A stretch of 41,671 nucleotides of DNA from a virus (IMGVR_UViG_3300037391_000121), one strand, 5' to 3'. Shown: positions 4,150 to 41,480, counted from the stretch's first letter. Notes: generated by a model not told the origin, from the sequence alone. Translations and numbers: made by a program.

Positions 4150-4176
4150 CCAAAAACACGATCTCGATGGTAGAAT
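4146..4176 (+). promoter_or_regulatory. phage promoter, CTA(G/T)C(C/T)-N19-TAnnAT class
   Basis: CTAGCC 4146-4151, GG then TAGAAT 4171-4176. Confidence 0.65.
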
Positions 4177-4189
4177 AGACACCGAGTCT

Positions 4190-5086
4190 ATGACTATCCA
4201 ACGAAGAGACGCTCTCGGCGACCGCATGAAGCGGTACGAAGACATCACCCGCTACAAACTTCCACCCCGCACCTATACTCTCCTCCGTGTTGACGGACGG
4301 GCATTCCACACGTGGACGCGGGGCCTGCAAAAACCTTACGATACGTTCCTGATGAATCTGATGGACAAGACCGCGATTGCCCTGTGCGAAGAGATCGCCG
4401 GGACGCAGTTCGCCTTCGTCCAGAGTGATGAGATTAGCCTGCTCGCCGTGGACTTCCTTGAGATCGGCACCCAAGCGTGGTTCGATGGACTGGTACAGAA
4501 GTGGTGCAGCGTATCCGCCGCCATCGCGACCATGACGTTCAACATGGAACTCATGAAGCTCAAAGGGTCGAACACGACCGAGAACGAACTCCTTATCACC
4601 AAGAAATTGCCCGTCGCCACGTTCGACGCCCGCGTCTGGACGATTCCAGATCACGTCGAAGTCGAGAACTACTTCGTGTGGCGGCAACAGGACGCGGTAC
4701 GCAACTCCGTCATGATGCTGGCTCGCGCTCACGCCTCGCACAAGCAACTGCACGGCAAGAACCAAGCCGCTCAGCACGATATCATTCACGCTGCGGGTGA
4801 CAATTGGGAGAAGCATCCCGCTCGCTTCAAGCACGGCGGTGTTATTCGCCGTCAGGCGGTTGACTACACGCCCGTCCCCATTGTTCATCCTGCATTTGTG
4901 CCGCCGAATTTTTCGGGGCTGGTCTCTAAAGAGGCTCCGAAGCCCGAGAGAAGCAATTGGTTCATGGATGAAGGCACTCCCGTATTCACACGCGAGCGTC
5001 ATTACCTGCGAACCATGATCCCGATTCATTGGGAAGACGATATGGTTCAGCGGATTCCAGATCATCGAAAGGGGACAACGGCATGA
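4190..5086 (+). CDS. thg1: tRNA(His) guanylyltransferase Thg1 / Thg1-like protein
   Basis: GDRMKRYE, RVDGRAFH, QSDEISL, FDAR, YFVWRQQDAVRNS are hallmark Thg1 motifs. Confidence 0.95.
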   Translation: MTIQRRDALGDRMKRYEDITRYKLPPRTYTLLRVDGRAFHTWTRGLQKPYDTFLMNLMDKTAIALCEEIAGTQFAFVQSDEISLLAVDFLEIGTQAWFDGLVQKWCSVSAAIATMTFNMELMKLKGSNTTENELLITKKLPVATFDARVWTIPDHVEVENYFVWRQQDAVRNSVMMLARAHASHKQLHGKNQAAQHDIIHAAGDNWEKHPARFKHGGVIRRQAVDYTPVPIVHPAFVPPNFSGLVSKEAPKPERSNWFMDEGTPVFTRERHYLRTMIPIHWEDDMVQRIPDHRKGTTA

Positions 5087-22533: not shown

Positions 22534-22880
22534 GACAAAGTTGTCTTTGTGAACTTATCAACACGGGAATGTGCGACGGAGCGGAAAAGCAAGTCATCTG
22601 CCCCTCGCATCCCCGCAACCGCAGCACCCCGAAGATAACGCCGCTTCGTCACGCCATTTGGTGGGTGGGGTATTACGGATTCGAGCGCCCCATCGAACTT
22701 CTTCGCAGGAAGATGCATGAATGGCATTGGGTGCACACGTGGGGACCGTGGGTGGATGGGCAGAGATTTGCCGTCGCCTACCCGTGGACGAAAGCTGGCT
22801 GCTTCGCCCATTACGTGACCTATCAGGTTCGTCACTGTGAACAGTGCGGACTCAAGGAAAAGAACGAACGCTGGTCATGA
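22530..22880 (+). CDS. hypothetical protein
   Basis: ATGA coupling. Confidence 0.65.
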   Translation: MRQSCLCELINTGMCDGAEKQVICPSHPRNRSTPKITPLRHAIWWVGYYGFERPIELLRRKMHEWHWVHTWGPWVDGQRFAVAYPWTKAGCFAHYVTYQVRHCEQCGLKEKNERWS

Positions 22881-23155
22881 ACATCCCCGCATTGACCGAG
22901 CACGTTAAGCTGCTCAATCAGCACGTTGATCGGGTGAGCAAGTACCTGTTCACCTACTATTTCATTCGAGCATTCTTGAACGACCCCGCAGGAACAATCA
23001 TCAACCTCATTCGCCGCGTGGCGACGACCGCGTGCTGGTGGTTCATTTTGGGCTCGGTCGCGATTCTGGTGACCACATGGGGCATCTTGGGATGGCTGGG
23101 AATCGAGTATCTGTTGGGGCACCATGCCGCCATCCAAAAATTTCTTCACAAATAA
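22877..23155 (+). CDS. hypothetical membrane protein
   Basis: ATG 22877, TM segment. Confidence 0.65.
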   Translation: MNIPALTEHVKLLNQHVDRVSKYLFTYYFIRAFLNDPAGTIINLIRRVATTACWWFILGSVAILVTTWGILGWLGIEYLLGHHAAIQKFLHK

Positions 23156-23186
23156 CTAGCTGTTTTCTGACTTCCCATGGTATTAT
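23156..23186 (+). promoter_or_regulatory. promoter of tRNA-Ser cluster leader
   Basis: CTAGCT-N19-TATTAT with extended TGG; shares CATGGTAnTATATAGAAG with 38719-38736. Confidence 0.8.
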
Positions 23187-23228
23187 ATAGAAGTTGGCTC
23201 ACCGCAAGAAGGTGACCCGGACACACAA

Positions 23229-23303
23229 ATGATCGTTATCAGCATATCATCGTTATCGTCTAGTAGCTCCTCACGGGGCGACGGCATCGGTGTGTGCTTG
23301 TAA
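23229..23303 (+). CDS. Ser-rich attenuator leader peptide (24 aa, MIVISISSLSSSSSSRGDGIGVCL)
   Basis: 9 Ser codons using all six Ser triplets plus ATA and TTA, between a promoter and a terminator. Confidence 0.8.
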   Translation: MIVISISSLSSSSSSRGDGIGVCL

Positions 23304-23342
23304 GTATCTGAAAACAAGCAGATTAGATTCACCGAGCAGCCG
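23282..23342 (+). promoter_or_regulatory. antiterminator hairpin of leader 1
   Basis: TGCTTGT/ACAAGCA, TCGGTG/CACCGA and CGGC/GCCG; the last pairing takes the left arm of the terminator. Confidence 0.7.
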
Positions 23343-23370
23343 CCAAAACTAGGGCGGCTTTTGTGTTTTT
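23338..23370 (+). terminator. intrinsic terminator (attenuator) before tRNA-Ser genes
   Basis: AGCCGCC-aaaactag-GGCGGCT followed by TTTGTGTTTTT. Confidence 0.85.
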
Positions 23371-23386
23371 GTACGCAAGTTAACAG

Positions 23387-23478
23387 GGTGAGTTGGGCGA
23401 GTGGCTGATGCCGCAGGTTTGCTAAACCTGAGTGCCTCGAAAGGGGCACCGTGGGTTCGAATCCCACACTCACCGCCA
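23387..23478 (+). tRNA. tRNA-Ser(GCT)
   Basis: GGTGAGT/ACTCACC acceptor, CAGGT-TTGCTAA-ACCTG, long V arm, G73, CCA. Confidence 0.95.
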
Positions 23479-23516
23479 TTTTGAGAAGTACGCGGATGGA
23501 TTAGCAACGTCCGTTT

Positions 23517-23606
23517 GGTGAGTTGGGAGAGCGGCTGAATCCGCCACGTTGGAAGCGTGGAGCACCCGCAAGGGTGCCGTGAGTTCGAATCTCACACTCA
23601 CCGCCA
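23517..23606 (+). tRNA. tRNA-Ser(GGA)
   Basis: CCACG-TTGGAAG-CGTGG, long V arm, G73, CCA. Confidence 0.95.
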
Positions 23607-23611
23607 GTTCT

Positions 23612-23705
23612 GGTGGGCTTGGTACATGGGCAAGTCCGCTCGTCTTGAAAACGAGTACGGGGCAGAGATGCTCCGTTGGGAGTTCGACTCTCCCGTCCAC
23701 CGCCA
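23612..23705 (+). tRNA. tRNA-Ser(TGA)
   Basis: CTCGT-CTTGAAA-ACGAG, long V arm, G73, CCA. Confidence 0.93.
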
Positions 23706-23709
23706 GTTT

Positions 23710-23804
23710 GGTGAGGTTGGTACATTGGCAAGTCCGCTCGCCTCGAAAGCGAGTCGCGGGGCTAACCGCCTCGCGTGCAGGTTCAACTCCTGTCCTCACC
23801 GCCA
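23710..23804 (+). tRNA. tRNA-Ser(CGA)
   Basis: CTCGC-CTCGAAA-GCGAG, long V arm, G73, CCA. Confidence 0.93.
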
Positions 23805-23900
23805 GTTTGACTCACGTGCCTAATGTGTGCCGATGTTTGGCCTCGTGACCCGCGAGGGATATGAGAAGCAGAAGTCAAAGTTTTCGTGGTATTATTGGGT

Positions 23901-24209
23901 ATGAAGTCTTACGAACCATGCGTCGAAGACGCCACGGCCCATATCCACGTTGATTGGAAGACACACGAGAGCACGGGGAAATTTGCCCCGTACCCGAAAA
24001 TATTTTGTAGTGTGTGCCCGCCGTCAACGACAGCGGAAAGTGAAGAGGAGTACCGCAAGTACGTGGCATACGAGAAGCGAGAAGCTTTGAAGTACGCTAC
24101 GCGGAGACCGAGCCAATCGCTTCGTCTTCGGCTGTACCGTCACCGCATTTTGATTATGTGCGGATTTCTGGTCGCAGCGTATTGCGTACTCCATTGGATT
24201 TTGCGGTAG
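23901..24209 (+). CDS. hypothetical protein with C-terminal TM
   Basis: ATG 5 nt after TGGTATTAT (leaderless-type). Confidence 0.7.
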   Translation: MKSYEPCVEDATAHIHVDWKTHESTGKFAPYPKIFCSVCPPSTTAESEEEYRKYVAYEKREALKYATRRPSQSLRLRLYRHRILIMCGFLVAAYCVLHWILR

Positions 24210-24211
24210 AC

Positions 24212-24289
24212 GCCCGAGTGATGCAACTGGCAGACATTTCCCACTTAAAACGGGAATTTTTGGGAGTTCGAATCTCCTCTCGGGCACCA
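24212..24289 (+). tRNA. tRNA-Leu(TAA), short variable loop
   Basis: GCCCGAG/CTCGGGC, loop CTTAAAA, T arm GGGAG-TTCGAAT-CTCCT, A73, CCA. Confidence 0.85.
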
Positions 24290-24294
24290 AGTTT

Positions 24295-24388
24295 AGAGGG
24301 TAGCATTGGTGTGCGGGTGGGCCTTATAAACCTGCAATCGCGGCTGATTACCGTACTCGGACGGGTTCGATTCCCGTACCCTCTACCA
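24295..24388 (+). tRNA. atypical tRNA with TAT anticodon (nominal Ile), long V arm, minimal D arm
   Basis: AGAGGGT/ACCCTCT, loop CTTATAA, 25-nt variable region, T arm, A73, CCA. Confidence 0.7.
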
Positions 24389-24418
24389 TATTTCCCCGCC
24401 CCGTGGTATTATCCTAGT

Positions 24419-25442: not shown

Positions 25443-26020
25443 ATGAATCCGAGTGAAGAGTGGCTTGAAAAATACGGAAGGTTCTGGGGAAACGTCACGG
25501 ACGAGCCGAAGAAACCGTACCAGTTGACCACTCGTGAGATGTACGACGCGCACATGGATCAGTACACGGATGACACCGCCTGTCTGAGCATGACGAAGAC
25601 CGACCATCCCAGCTACCAGTTCATCAAGAACCAACTCGGAATGCGGGCAGTCCCCTACCTGCTGGAAGACATCCAAGCGCAACACCCAGACGGTTCGTTC
25701 GACCACACCAGCTACCACAGCTTTTGGGGAGCGTGTAGTCTGTTCCGCAACATCCTCTACGAGAATGGAATTCCGGGCCCAGAGATTCCCGAGCCGTATC
25801 GCGGGAGGTTGAGCACATCCGCGAGATATACGTGGACTGGGGCGTTCAAGAAGAGTTTTTAGCAGACAACCACGTGCCGTCGATCCCGATAAAGCTGGAT
25901 CAGGTGCATCGGTTGGTTCCAAATCGATTTTTCGGTCTCCGTAATTACGTGTGGAGATTGACCACTCTCCCAAATCGCCATCGCATGAAACACGCATGGG
26001 ACTTTTGGAGAGCAATATGA
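25443..26020 (+). CDS. hypothetical protein, apparent frameshift near 25805
   Basis: ...IPEPYRG continues naturally as VEHIREIYVDWGVQEEF... in the adjacent frame. Confidence 0.55.
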
Positions 26021-26029
26021 GGAGTTTCA

Positions 26030-26254
26030 ATGGCAAAGGCACAAACAGCACGCAAACCGCAGGACAGGGTGATGCGATTGCTCGACGAACTTCGGGAGCG
26101 CCCGAATGAGGAAAGCATCCGCAGGATTTTGAACGCATCGGAAGATGCCCGCCATGCTCGAATGGAATACTTCGGGCTGAGCAAAGCAGTGAAAAAGATT
26201 CTAAACCGAGAGTTGACTGAACGCGAGAACACTCTCATCAAGAGGTTATCATGA
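26030..26254 (+). CDS. hypothetical protein
   Basis: GAGGAG SD. Confidence 0.75.
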   Translation: MAKAQTARKPQDRVMRLLDELRERPNEESIRRILNASEDARHARMEYFGLSKAVKKILNRELTERENTLIKRLS

Positions 26255-26298
26255 GCAACGAAAGCGGCATTGGCAATGATGGGTAGGAGGAATTGGCA

Positions 26299-26608
26299 AT
26301 GATCGACTTCATGTTCTTTCTCGTTTTTCTGTTCGTAGCAGGATTCATCACTGGTGTTGGGGCTTTGATCCATCGAGAATCCGAATCGTACCGAAAAGAG
26401 CATTCGCAGAATCATAACGACAGGCGTGTTTATCGTCGTCGGCGTCCTGTTGTACTACGGCATTCGCGCTTTGGCCCACTGGCTCGGCGGGATTCAACTC
26501 AACCTGCCCAATCTCAGCAACCACGATTTCGAATGGTTGGTCATCGCCCTTCTTGCGGTCATTTGCTTGAACGGCGGCGGAAGCTGCAACTGCAAGTGCG
26601 GCAAGTGA
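26299..26608 (+). CDS. multi-pass membrane protein, apparent frameshift near 26370
   Basis: removing one C joins MIDFMFF...GALI to IENPNRTEKSIRRIITTGVFIVVG... Confidence 0.5.
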
Positions 26609-34753: not shown

Positions 34754-34924
34754 ATGGCGTGGAAGACTTTCACCCTCTTTGAACCGCACTCGGACGGAGC
34801 CGCCTACAGTGGGAGGCCCATCGAAGAACAACTCGATCAAATCGAGGCGAATGACTACGAAATTCGCTTTGTGTTCAAGGAGTCGGCGAGGTATACTGTA
34901 CTGGCAAGACGTAAGGCACACTAA
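34754..34924 (+). CDS. small hypothetical protein (56 aa)
   Basis: AAGGA SD; TAATG coupling to next gene. Confidence 0.6.
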   Translation: MAWKTFTLFEPHSDGAAYSGRPIEEQLDQIEANDYEIRFVFKESARYTVLARRKAH

Positions 34925-35865
34925 TGACCATTTTCGAACAATTGAAGGCCAACAAGTTCCCCTACGCGAACAATCTGATCCACCTATTCAGGGGTGGGTC
35001 TGATCTCCATGGGGCGCAGCTTGTGAACAAGCACGATGACGACTGGTACGGCGTTTACGTTGAGCCGCCAGAGATGGTCATCGGCCTCAAGGATTACCCC
35101 CACTACGTGTGGTCGTCTGCGGGCGACACAAAGCGGAATGTTCCCGGCGATATGGACATCTGCTTTTACTCGCTGCGGAAGTGGGCGAAGCTCGCCTCGG
35201 GCGGGAACCCCACTTGCCTGTCGTACCTTTTCGCCGAGAACACCCTGCCTGTCACCGATCTATGGCAAGAGGTACGGAACATGCGGAAACTCTTCCTGTC
35301 AAAGGCGTGTGCGGAGCAGTTCCGTGGGTTTGCTATGGCCCAGCGTCAGCGGTACATGGGCGAACGCGGGCAGGGCAAGCACGGTCAACGTCCCGAGCTT
35401 GAGGAGAAGTTTGGCTTCGATACCAAGGCTGCCATGCACGTTATGCGGCTCCTCGGCGAGGGGATTGAACTTATGCAGGCTGGTGAGATCACCTACCCCC
35501 GTCCGAACAAGAGTCTGCTGATTGCCGTCCGCGAGGGCAAGTACGATCAGGCATTCCTCAAGGACATGACGGACACCCTGTTTGCCGATCTGGACAGGGC
35601 ACAGCGCGAGTCCGACCTACCCGATGAGGTTGACAGGGAAGCTGTGTCCAAATTCCTGACCAAGTTCTACCTCAAGGTTTGGGGAAGAGACGACTGTGTG
35701 ACCAACCGCATTCTGGCACGAGGGTTGGGACTTGCCTGCCGCTGGATCGCGGGACACCTACGGGCAGATGAGCGGGCGGATGGGCATCCCGCGTGGGAAG
35801 AATGGCGTGACGAGTCTGTCGTCAAGATCGCCATGATCGACATGGCAATGCGAGCGGAGGACTAA
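34924..35865 (+). CDS. DNA polymerase beta superfamily nucleotidyltransferase (RlaP/Nuc-transf-like)
   Basis: GGSDLHG, DDDWYGVY, SLRK...GNP, K.A.H..RLL. Confidence 0.8.
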   Translation: MTIFEQLKANKFPYANNLIHLFRGGSDLHGAQLVNKHDDDWYGVYVEPPEMVIGLKDYPHYVWSSAGDTKRNVPGDMDICFYSLRKWAKLASGGNPTCLSYLFAENTLPVTDLWQEVRNMRKLFLSKACAEQFRGFAMAQRQRYMGERGQGKHGQRPELEEKFGFDTKAAMHVMRLLGEGIELMQAGEITYPRPNKSLLIAVREGKYDQAFLKDMTDTLFADLDRAQRESDLPDEVDREAVSKFLTKFYLKVWGRDDCVTNRILARGLGLACRWIAGHLRADERADGHPAWEEWRDESVVKIAMIDMAMRAED

Positions 35866-38698: not shown

Positions 38699-38729
38699 CT
38701 ATCCTTTTTTCCGATTTCCATGGTAGTAT
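38699..38729 (+). promoter_or_regulatory. promoter of second tRNA-array leader
   Basis: CTATCC-N19-TAGTAT with extended TGG; near-identical to 23156-23186 region. Confidence 0.8.
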
Positions 38730-38748
38730 ATAGAAGCTGAGGAAAACA

Positions 38749-38871
38749 ATGACTCTGAAAAACGCCAATTCGACCGTAGCGACAGCCCATAAGGGCGTCG
38801 GCGGCAAGCGCCAGCGGAATAATCGCTGGTTCGGCGAGGGTCTGTCCTCGGTAGGAGTGGTCGGAATCTAA
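38749..38871 (+). CDS. attenuator leader peptide (40 aa, MTLKNANSTVATAHKGVGGKRQRNNRWFGEGLSSVGVVGI)
   Basis: TGAGGA SD; run AAG CGC CAG CGG AAT AAT CGC TGG at 38806-38829 matches downstream anticodons. Confidence 0.8.
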   Translation: MTLKNANSTVATAHKGVGGKRQRNNRWFGEGLSSVGVVGI

Positions 38872-38906
38872 GACAAAACTCCAAAACGAGATCATGACCC
38901 AACCGG
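38826..38906 (+). promoter_or_regulatory. antiterminator hairpin of leader 2
   Basis: GGAGT/ACTCC, CTCG/CGAG, GGGTC/GACCC, GGTT/AACC; sequesters the left arm of the terminator. Confidence 0.7.
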
Positions 38907-38926
38907 ACTTAGACGGTTGGGTTTTT
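38896..38926 (+). terminator. intrinsic terminator (attenuator) before tRNA array 2
   Basis: ACCCAACCG-gacttaga-CGGTTGGGT followed by TTTTGCATTTTT. Confidence 0.85.
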
Positions 38927-38947
38927 GCATTTTTAGTGGGTTTTTAC

Positions 38948-41051: not shown

Positions 41052-41480
41052 ATGGGTCAGAAAGAGTGTCAGCGGCGTTGGTACTTGAAGCACAGAAGGA
41101 AACACGTAGCCAACGTCGGTATTCGCAAGGAAGCTCTGAGGCAAGAAAACACTGCCAAAGTGCTAGAGTACAAGAAGTTGCATCCTTGCATTGACTGCGG
41201 TGAAACAGACCCAGACATGTTGACGTTCGATCACGTTCGAGGCAAGAAACGTAAGAGTGTCTCGGAAATGCTTTCGGGCGGCTGTACTTGGGAGTTGATC
41301 GAAGCGGAGATCGCGAAGTGCGAGGTTCGTTGCTGGAACCACCACATGAAACGCACAGCGGTTGAGCGGCGAAAAAAGTTTGGATCGGTAGCTCAATTGG
41401 CAGAGCAGGTGACTCTTAATCATCAGGTTGTCGGTTCGATTCCGACCCGGTTCACCAAGTTCGGGTTAGCTCAAGCTTAG
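41052..41480 (+). CDS. HNH endonuclease
   Basis: CIDCG, LTFDH, IAKCEVRCWNHH; 3' end overlaps tRNA-Lys. Confidence 0.85.
   Translation: MGQKECQRRWYLKHRRKHVANVGIRKEALRQENTAKVLEYKKLHPCIDCGETDPDMLTFDHVRGKKRKSVSEMLSGGCTWELIEAEIAKCEVRCWNHHMKRTAVERRKKFGSVAQLAEQVTLNHQVVGSIPTRFTKFGLAQA
41382..41457 (+). tRNA. tRNA-Lys(CTT) canonical
   Basis: GGATCGG/CCGGTTC, GGTGA-CTCTTAA-TCATC, A73, CCA. Confidence 0.92.

Follow-up and report, generated by a model that had tools for sequence, protein, structure and literature searches.

A candidate leader-peptide attenuator in front of the tRNA-Ser genes of a huge uncultured phage

Introduction

Large phages carry dozens of tRNA genes each, and to our knowledge the regulation of those genes is essentially unknown. 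In a huge uncultured phage, represented here by a 41,671-nucleotide stretch of DNA (IMGVR_UViG_3300037391_000121; hereafter "the window"), a 24-codon ORF and a terminator are placed 5′ of the four tRNA-Ser genes, which raises the question of what a short coding sequence and a transcription stop are doing there. Judging from the sequence, we consider it likely that this element is a leader-peptide transcription attenuator gating a phage tRNA operon, and that the phage probably makes tRNA-Ser only when ribosomes decode serine codons slowly. We know of leader-peptide attenuation so far only in amino-acid biosynthesis and synthetase operons, and our full-text searches of the literature turned up no account of tRNA genes under such control.

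A serine-rich ORF and a terminator precede four tRNA-Ser genes

Sequence, ORF, tRNA and terminator searches located each of the parts described in the original prediction, all on the plus strand: a promoter, a 24-codon serine-rich ORF, a terminator and four tRNA-Ser genes. The phage-type promoter (23156-23186) is made up of a CTAGCT box (23156-23161), a 19-nt spacer and an extended -10 element, TGGTATTAT (23178-23186), and at least six further genes of the window have this layout of box, 19 nt and extended -10 ahead of them. A generic sigma-70 scan did not call the leader promoter because its -35 is weak; the orthologous leaders described below carry a canonical TTGACA at the position of the box (TTGACA-17/18-TATTAT). 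The transcript is predicted to start near 23193, and minimum-free-energy folds place a hairpin in the 5′ UTR (23195-23219). The called ORF begins with ATG and occupies 23229-23303 (24 codons plus TAA). Its SD-like GGTG lies 14 nt from the ATG, within a hairpin. An SD is present for only ~27-43% of the long ORFs in these phages and many genes are laid out as leaderless, as are two of the orthologous leaders, in which the ATG is at or near the predicted transcript start.

The window also contains a phage promoter class with a CTAGCC box, a 19-nt spacer and TGGTAGAAT (at 4168, 13089, 15115, 27436 and other sites). In this class the gene's ATG is only 6-9 nt past the -10, so that the mRNAs of Thg1, the ligase and others would be leaderless.

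The control region of the leader comprises codons 5-15 (23241-23273), which read AGC ATA TCA TCG TTA TCG TCT AGT AGC TCC TCA: nine Ser codons that include all six triplets, plus one ATA and one TTA. Serine accounts for 9 of 23 codons against a background of 0.06 in the phage's long ORFs (binomial p = 3e-6), so the enrichment is not due to chance. The peptides of the leader ORFs match nothing in Pfam or PHROG. Searching 22800-24400 against Rfam with E up to 1 recovered the tRNAs and nothing in the leader; the other matches were weak reverse-strand ones to Plastid-psbl-rps4, overlapping two of the tRNA-Ser genes.

The last Ser codons are predicted to pair with GGGGCGAC to form hairpin A (23257-23283, -10.6 kcal/mol), the equivalent of a 1:2 pairing; it appears in minimum-free-energy folds and bears out the competing upstream hairpin that had been proposed. 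Region 2, a G-rich set of Gly/Asp codons (GGCGACGGC, 23276-23285), is able to pair with the 5′ arm of the terminator, and the adjacent hairpin B (23284-23337, -16.3 kcal/mol), which spans the stop codon, makes up the predicted antiterminator together with the region 2 extension. The intrinsic terminator (23338-23370, -13.3 kcal/mol) has an AGCCGCC / GGCGGCT stem and a U-tract; the stem, at 23338-23359, is 7 bp long with six G-C pairs and is followed by TTTTGTGTTTT.

The first tRNA-Ser gene starts 16 nt 3′ of the terminator, and a scan of this 16-nt gap revealed no promoter-like site. The four genes, with anticodons GCU (23387-23478), GGA (23517-23606), UGA (23612-23705) and CGA (23710-23804), were each identified by both a tRNA search and Rfam. 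Further downstream is a tRNA-Leu with anticodon UAA (24212-24289), the species that decodes the TTA conserved in the leader. In relatives it adjoins the Ser tRNAs; in the window an ORF (23901-24209) with a promoter-like site of its own at 23887 has been inserted in between. The next gene (24294-24388) is tRNA-like, with a long variable arm and UAU at the center of an apparent 9-nt anticodon loop. It scores 31.6 bits with the Rfam tRNA-Sec model, below the Rfam cut-off, and was overlooked by ARAGORN; it is conserved in both of the large relatives introduced below (G002 and G004), directly after tRNA-Leu-UAA. It could read the leader's conserved ATA codon, and the ATA and TTA of the leader thus match the two genes that come next after the Ser tRNAs.

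The leader is conserved as an ORF

The window has no close relative among deposited phages. Within the INPHARED phage collection we found tRNA-Ser similarity only and no relative of the leader. Pectobacterium phage CBB, to which the tRNA-Ser similarity led, was set aside: its tRNAs are single genes scattered among others, and the cassette is absent. The two proteins that flank the leader have no relatives in IMG/VR, a loose Ser-run pattern run over IMG/VR gave chance matches only, and an IMG/VR search anchored on tRNA-Ser(CGA) returned no contig beyond three already known. Relatives were reached via the Thg1 protein: two large IMG/VR contigs, G004 (455.7 kb) and G002 (463.0 kb), and the more distant fragments G001, G005 and G006. 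Proteins of the window are 40-60% identical to those in the corresponding neighborhood of G004, and the leader region is 78% identical to it at the DNA level, close to the value for the tRNAs. G004 and G002 contain 61 and 68 tRNA genes, respectively, arranged in clusters.

The ORF, the Ser run and the in-frame ATA and TTA are retained in six distinct orthologous versions of the Ser leader, which come from huge phages of 455-463 kb and from metagenome contigs. Those in G002 and G004 were found independently of the leader, through the Thg1 protein and then tRNA similarity; the others (L280/L200, L266, L281, L289 and L306) came from a metagenome scan whose pattern required part of the Ser run, and are a biased sample for that reason. 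Even so, the only differences among the true homologues where the pattern allowed variation are of 1, 4 or 7 nt, and all variants spell Ser codons. In G004 and G002 a promoter is followed by an ORF (25 or 26 codons, of which seven or six in a row encode Ser), a terminator, the four tRNA-Ser genes known from the window and then tRNA-Leu-UAA; in G004 the stretch from the terminator to the Ser tRNAs also contains an HNH-like ORF. The set of four tRNA-Ser plus tRNA-Leu-UAA is found downstream in every orthologue with enough contig. The original prediction had singled out relatives that keep the tRNAs and lose the Ser run as the case to look for, and all orthologues retain the run in front of the same tRNA-Ser set.

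The ATG is kept in all orthologues, the frame and stop codon in all complete ones, and differences in length are multiples of 3. Changes inside the Ser run are synonymous or 3n, and an ATA-N6-TTA motif before the run is conserved throughout, while the peptide tails diverge into two types. As for the RNA, the terminator is present in all complete orthologues, hairpin B is conserved in the G004-type orthologue, and the inner stem of hairpin A (GCUCC:GGRGY) is kept in all, with changes from U.G to U-A in three; conservation of these pairs was read by eye, as the MAFFT alignment misaligned the G002-type sequences there.

Similar leaders match the tRNA clusters that they precede

A promoter, a short ORF and a terminator also precede almost every other tRNA cluster in six phage records (G002, G004, G001, G005, G006 and the window), for a total of 23 leader–cluster pairs. 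In each case the middle part of the leader ORF is enriched in codons read by its own downstream tRNAs. In G004 and G002, the clusters with a leader are Tyr/Leu, Trp/His/Arg/Asn/Gln/Lys, Ile/Thr/Gln and Pro/Met/Phe; the Ala/Val/Gly/Asp/Cys/Glu cluster has one in G002 only, as we found none for the Ala/Val/Gly cluster of G004. The Pro/Met/Phe leaders (G004 132695-132870, G002 345941-346043) contain matching codons (CCA, CCG, CCT, TTT and ATG) and lack a clear GC hairpin plus U-tract before the first tRNA-Pro, and may use a different read-out.

The window itself contains a second cassette (38706-38935), with the same promoter block as the Ser leader, an SD, a 40-codon ORF (38749-38871) and a terminator of 9-10 bp. 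Eight consecutive codons of this ORF (K-R-Q-R-N-N-R-W) are each read by a tRNA encoded downstream, where the cargo consists of tRNAs for Trp, His (two), Arg (four), Asn (two), Thr, Gln and Lys (two). Orthologous leaders are found in G002 and G004.

For the three more distant fragments we applied an unbiased rule, in which a terminator had to lie at most 1.5 kb upstream of a tRNA and an ATG-initiated ORF of 15-60 codons had to end 5-75 nt before its stem. This rule yielded ten further matching leaders, several of which precede regrouped clusters: Trp/Glu/Val/Ala/Asp/Leu/Met, Pro/Gln/His, Thr/Arg/Ile, Phe/Glu/Asp/Ala and Tyr/Lys. Thus even in G005 and G006, where the grouping of tRNAs differs, the leaders match their clusters nonetheless. 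Under strict wobble rules, the mean fraction of cognate codons is 0.36-0.55 for a leader's own cluster vs. 0.06-0.15 for other clusters, and in each genome the true pairing of leaders with clusters is the single best among all permutations (1/120, 1/720, 1/120, 1/6 and 1/2). The Ser leader of G002 and the Tyr/Leu leader of G004 have a C-terminal module in common and differ in their control runs, which points to the leaders being paralogues with exchangeable middles.

The match extends to individual codons. Leu TTA occurs only in the Ser/Leu-UAA leaders, whereas CTN and TTG occur only in the Tyr/Leu leaders, whose clusters encode tRNA-Leu with anticodons GAG, CAG, UAG and CAA. The Ile/Thr/Gln cluster of G002 has tRNA-Gln with both CUG and UUG, and its leader has both CAG and CAA; that of G004 has tRNA-Gln UUG only, and its leader CAA only. 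Leaders in front of CGN-reading Arg tRNAs use CGN as their sole Arg codons. Partition by isoacceptor points to sensing of tRNA species rather than amino acids, and suggests that what is read is how much of each charged tRNA is available, not serine as such. Serine sensing was the wording of the original prediction, which this partition qualifies.

These observations bear on the alternative that the element senses starvation for the amino acid serine, as biosynthetic attenuators do. Leader-peptide attenuators respond to levels of charged tRNA, which drop on starvation, and this is what gives the idea its appeal. It does not account for the partition of Leu codons (TTA vs. CTN/TTG) and Gln codons (CAA vs. 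CAG), for Arg CGN codons being found only where CGN-reading tRNAs follow, or for the persistence of all six Ser triplets through synonymous turnover. Moreover, extra tRNA would not relieve a shortage of the amino acid, and we regard this explanation as improbable.

Predicted terminator and antiterminator

Most of the leaders have, directly after the control codons, a segment that is complementary to the 5′ arm of the terminator and co-varies with that arm; often it consists of Gly codons, for example GGCGGC. The stretch of the ORF identical to its own 3′ arm averages 6.25 nt, compared with 4.44 nt for unrelated arms (p = 7.5e-8), and in 12 of 21 leaders the segment binds its own terminator arm better than every unrelated arm. 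Pairing of region 2 with the 5′ arm is perfect in G004, L266, L289 and L306. Between L289 and L306, one position has changed together in the segment, the 5′ arm and the 3′ arm, a three-way co-variation, and in L266 the 5′ arm that pairs perfectly with the segment is itself a changed one. Both marks that had been proposed for homologues, conserved Ser codons and covarying stems, are thus found, the latter as antiterminator–terminator co-variation within the family.

The window's own switch is among the weakest antiterminators of the set. Here region 2 pairs with GCCGCC as an extension of hairpin B, with one A.C mismatch, and its fit to its own terminator arm does not exceed that to unrelated arms. 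At about -8 kcal/mol the extension stands against -13.3 kcal/mol for the terminator, and it forms only with the ribosomal A-site at or before 23265. When the window was folded to equilibrium under ribosome masks, the terminator always won, as it does for the textbook trp attenuator, so the window's switch must work kinetically. Because such masks are uninformative for the window, we instead folded the RNA as it would be before the 3′ arm exists, with the ribosome's footprint masked. In these folds a ribosome with its A-site at the control codons leaves the segment uncovered, and the 5′ arm pairs with it; a ribosome that has moved on covers the segment, and the arm is released. The 3′ end of the leader does pair with 23314-23337, as had been proposed, in a helix that reaches into the 5′ arm of the terminator as long as the 3′ arm is missing; at equilibrium this extension is outcompeted. 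When no ribosome is present, folds of RNA without the 3′ arm likewise have the 5′ arm paired with upstream sequence (mean P 0.49-0.99 across leaders), implying that an untranslated transcript may read through.

As modeled, the geometry of the leader family is the classical 1:2 / 2:3 / 3:4 one. The locus has a conserved ORF, a regulatory codon run, a terminator without an intervening promoter, and a 1:2 hairpin that overlaps both the control codons and region 2; it departs from the classical attenuator in its cargo, which is four tRNA-Ser genes rather than genes for biosynthesis or a synthetase.

The behavior of the window's RNA would also suit a more trivial explanation: an ordinary small or meaningless ORF next to a partly leaky terminator, with the tRNAs expressed constitutively by read-through and the Ser run sensing nothing. 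A terminator that always forms at equilibrium and an antiterminator with no better complementarity than to unrelated arms fit this explanation. It cannot, however, explain why 23 leaders in six records match their own clusters, reshuffled ones included, why Leu and Gln codons are partitioned, or why the tails diverge while the control run is kept, and the absence of any protein family match for the peptides speaks against an ordinary small gene. We therefore find it unlikely.

A further possibility is a T-box-like RNA switch that operates without translation, in which the codon run would pair with the anticodons of uncharged tRNAs and so stabilize the antiterminator. The control region is indeed conserved at the nucleotide level and the regulated genes are tRNA-related. 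On the other hand, the leader matches neither the T-box nor any other Rfam family with E up to 1, and it lacks both a Stem I with its specifier loop and a T-box motif. The conserved ATG, stop and frame, the 3n indels and the synonymous Ser changes all speak for translation, as do the many relatives whose ATG coincides with the predicted transcript start or lies close to it, in the manner of leaderless mRNAs, and we find such a switch very hard to credit. Least probable of all is the reversed logic, in which a stalled ribosome would uncouple from the polymerase and cause termination (Rho-dependent or intrinsic), so that tRNAs would be made only when decoding is efficient: the upstream pairing of the 5′ arm in several ribosome-free folds does leave the default state ambiguous, but the complementary segment comes right after the control codons, where only a ribosome already past them covers it, which is the geometry of stall-induced read-through, and the result would be positive feedback on tRNA supply without obvious benefit.

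A model for the Ser leader

Attenuation by a translated leader, the reading put forward in the original prediction, is thus supported by the orthologues, by the codon–cluster matching in 23 pairs and by co-variation within the family. From these we infer that the leader is translated, that transcription can terminate near 23365 and that read-through depends on stalling. In this model, transcription would begin from the promoter at 23156-23186, and a ribosome would be translating the 24-codon leader as RNA polymerase approaches the terminator at 23338-23370. With ample charged tRNA for the control codons (the six Ser triplets, TTA and ATA), the ribosome would reach the stop codon and cover region 2 plus the 5′ half of hairpin B; the terminator would then form and transcription would end 16 nt before the first tRNA-Ser gene. 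If any one of those tRNAs were scarce, the ribosome would instead stall within codons 7-13, covering region 1 and leaving region 2 (23276-23285) and hairpin B free to pair with the 5′ arm of the terminator while the 3′ arm is still to be transcribed. With the 5′ arm captured, the polymerase would read through into the four tRNA-Ser genes and, in the ancestral layout, also into the genes for tRNA-Leu-UAA and the UAU tRNA-like molecule. The newly made tRNAs would relieve the stall, closing a negative feedback loop.

Taken together, the leaders may act as codon checklists on tRNA isoacceptors, each an OR gate over the codons of its cluster, that would turn replacement tRNAs on exactly when host tRNAs are depleted or cleaved, and off again once supply is restored; we see the case for this broader reading as evenly balanced. 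The loss of host tRNAs would come, for example, from anticodon nucleases or infection-induced tRNA decay.

The phage leaders share with trpL, hisL, leuL, pheL, thrL and ilvL of Enterobacteria a short, putatively translated ORF with a regulatory codon run followed by a terminator, a predicted antiterminator segment directly after the control codons, and a 1:2 hairpin over these codons that competes with it. Like thrL and ilvL, some are multivalent, carrying codons for several amino acids. Unlike the attenuators of amino-acid operons, their cargo is tRNA genes rather than biosynthetic enzymes, their control codons cover every synonymous triplet or isoacceptor instead of one preferred codon, and they form a phage-encoded paralogous family with exchangeable control runs that matches no Rfam leader family. 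The pheST attenuator of E. coli is similar in that a leader peptide controls a component of the translation apparatus rather than biosynthesis, but it is chromosomal, responds to a single amino acid and controls a synthetase; the phage leader controls tRNAs. T-box riboswitches (RF00230) likewise sense tRNA status and choose between terminator and antiterminator upstream of translation-related genes, but they do so by binding uncharged tRNA directly, without translation, through a Stem I specifier codon and the T-box motif, whereas the phage leader has none of these features and a conserved ORF instead.

If the model is correct, ribosome-mediated attenuation has been adopted as a codon-by-codon sensor of tRNA supply that doses phage tRNAs through feedback, by means of a regulatory part that is modular (promoter, exchangeable codon run, antiterminator and terminator) and co-evolves with its cargo. 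Phage tRNA arrays would thereby be tied, in a directly testable way, to the depletion of host tRNAs in infection or defence, and there would be a compact natural sensor of specific tRNA availability that might be reused in synthetic biology. Should the checklist reading also hold, the leaders would constitute a modular, self-correcting circuit for tRNA homeostasis and counter-defence, in which the control run co-evolves with the tRNA content of the cluster.

Other features of the tRNA-rich regions

Besides its 18 tRNA genes, the window encodes an NAD-dependent ligase, a Thg1-like protein and a member of the RlaP family. The Thg1-family gene, for a tRNA-His guanylyltransferase, is at 4190-5086, and that for the nucleotidyltransferase of the RlaP family (RNA repair pathway) at 34924-35865. 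Together with the 18 tRNAs, these two genes suggest a heavy investment in tRNA supply and repair.

Small ORFs are found inside several tRNA operons: in G004 (L017, 1668-1990), in the window (41052-41381) and in G002 (341013-341310). They sit either between the attenuator and the tRNAs or between tRNAs, and some have an HNH-type CxxC...H motif; the ORF at 41052-41381 of the window has no Pfam match.

Outside the window, G004 (25852-26302) and G002 (238747-239667) each have a cluster of amber-suppressor tRNAs (anticodon CUA), and both also have tRNAs to which ARAGORN assigned anticodons of 2 or 4 bases. The CUA tRNAs and the calls of 2- and 4-base anticodons could be a sign that these phages recode TAG or decode with frameshifts.
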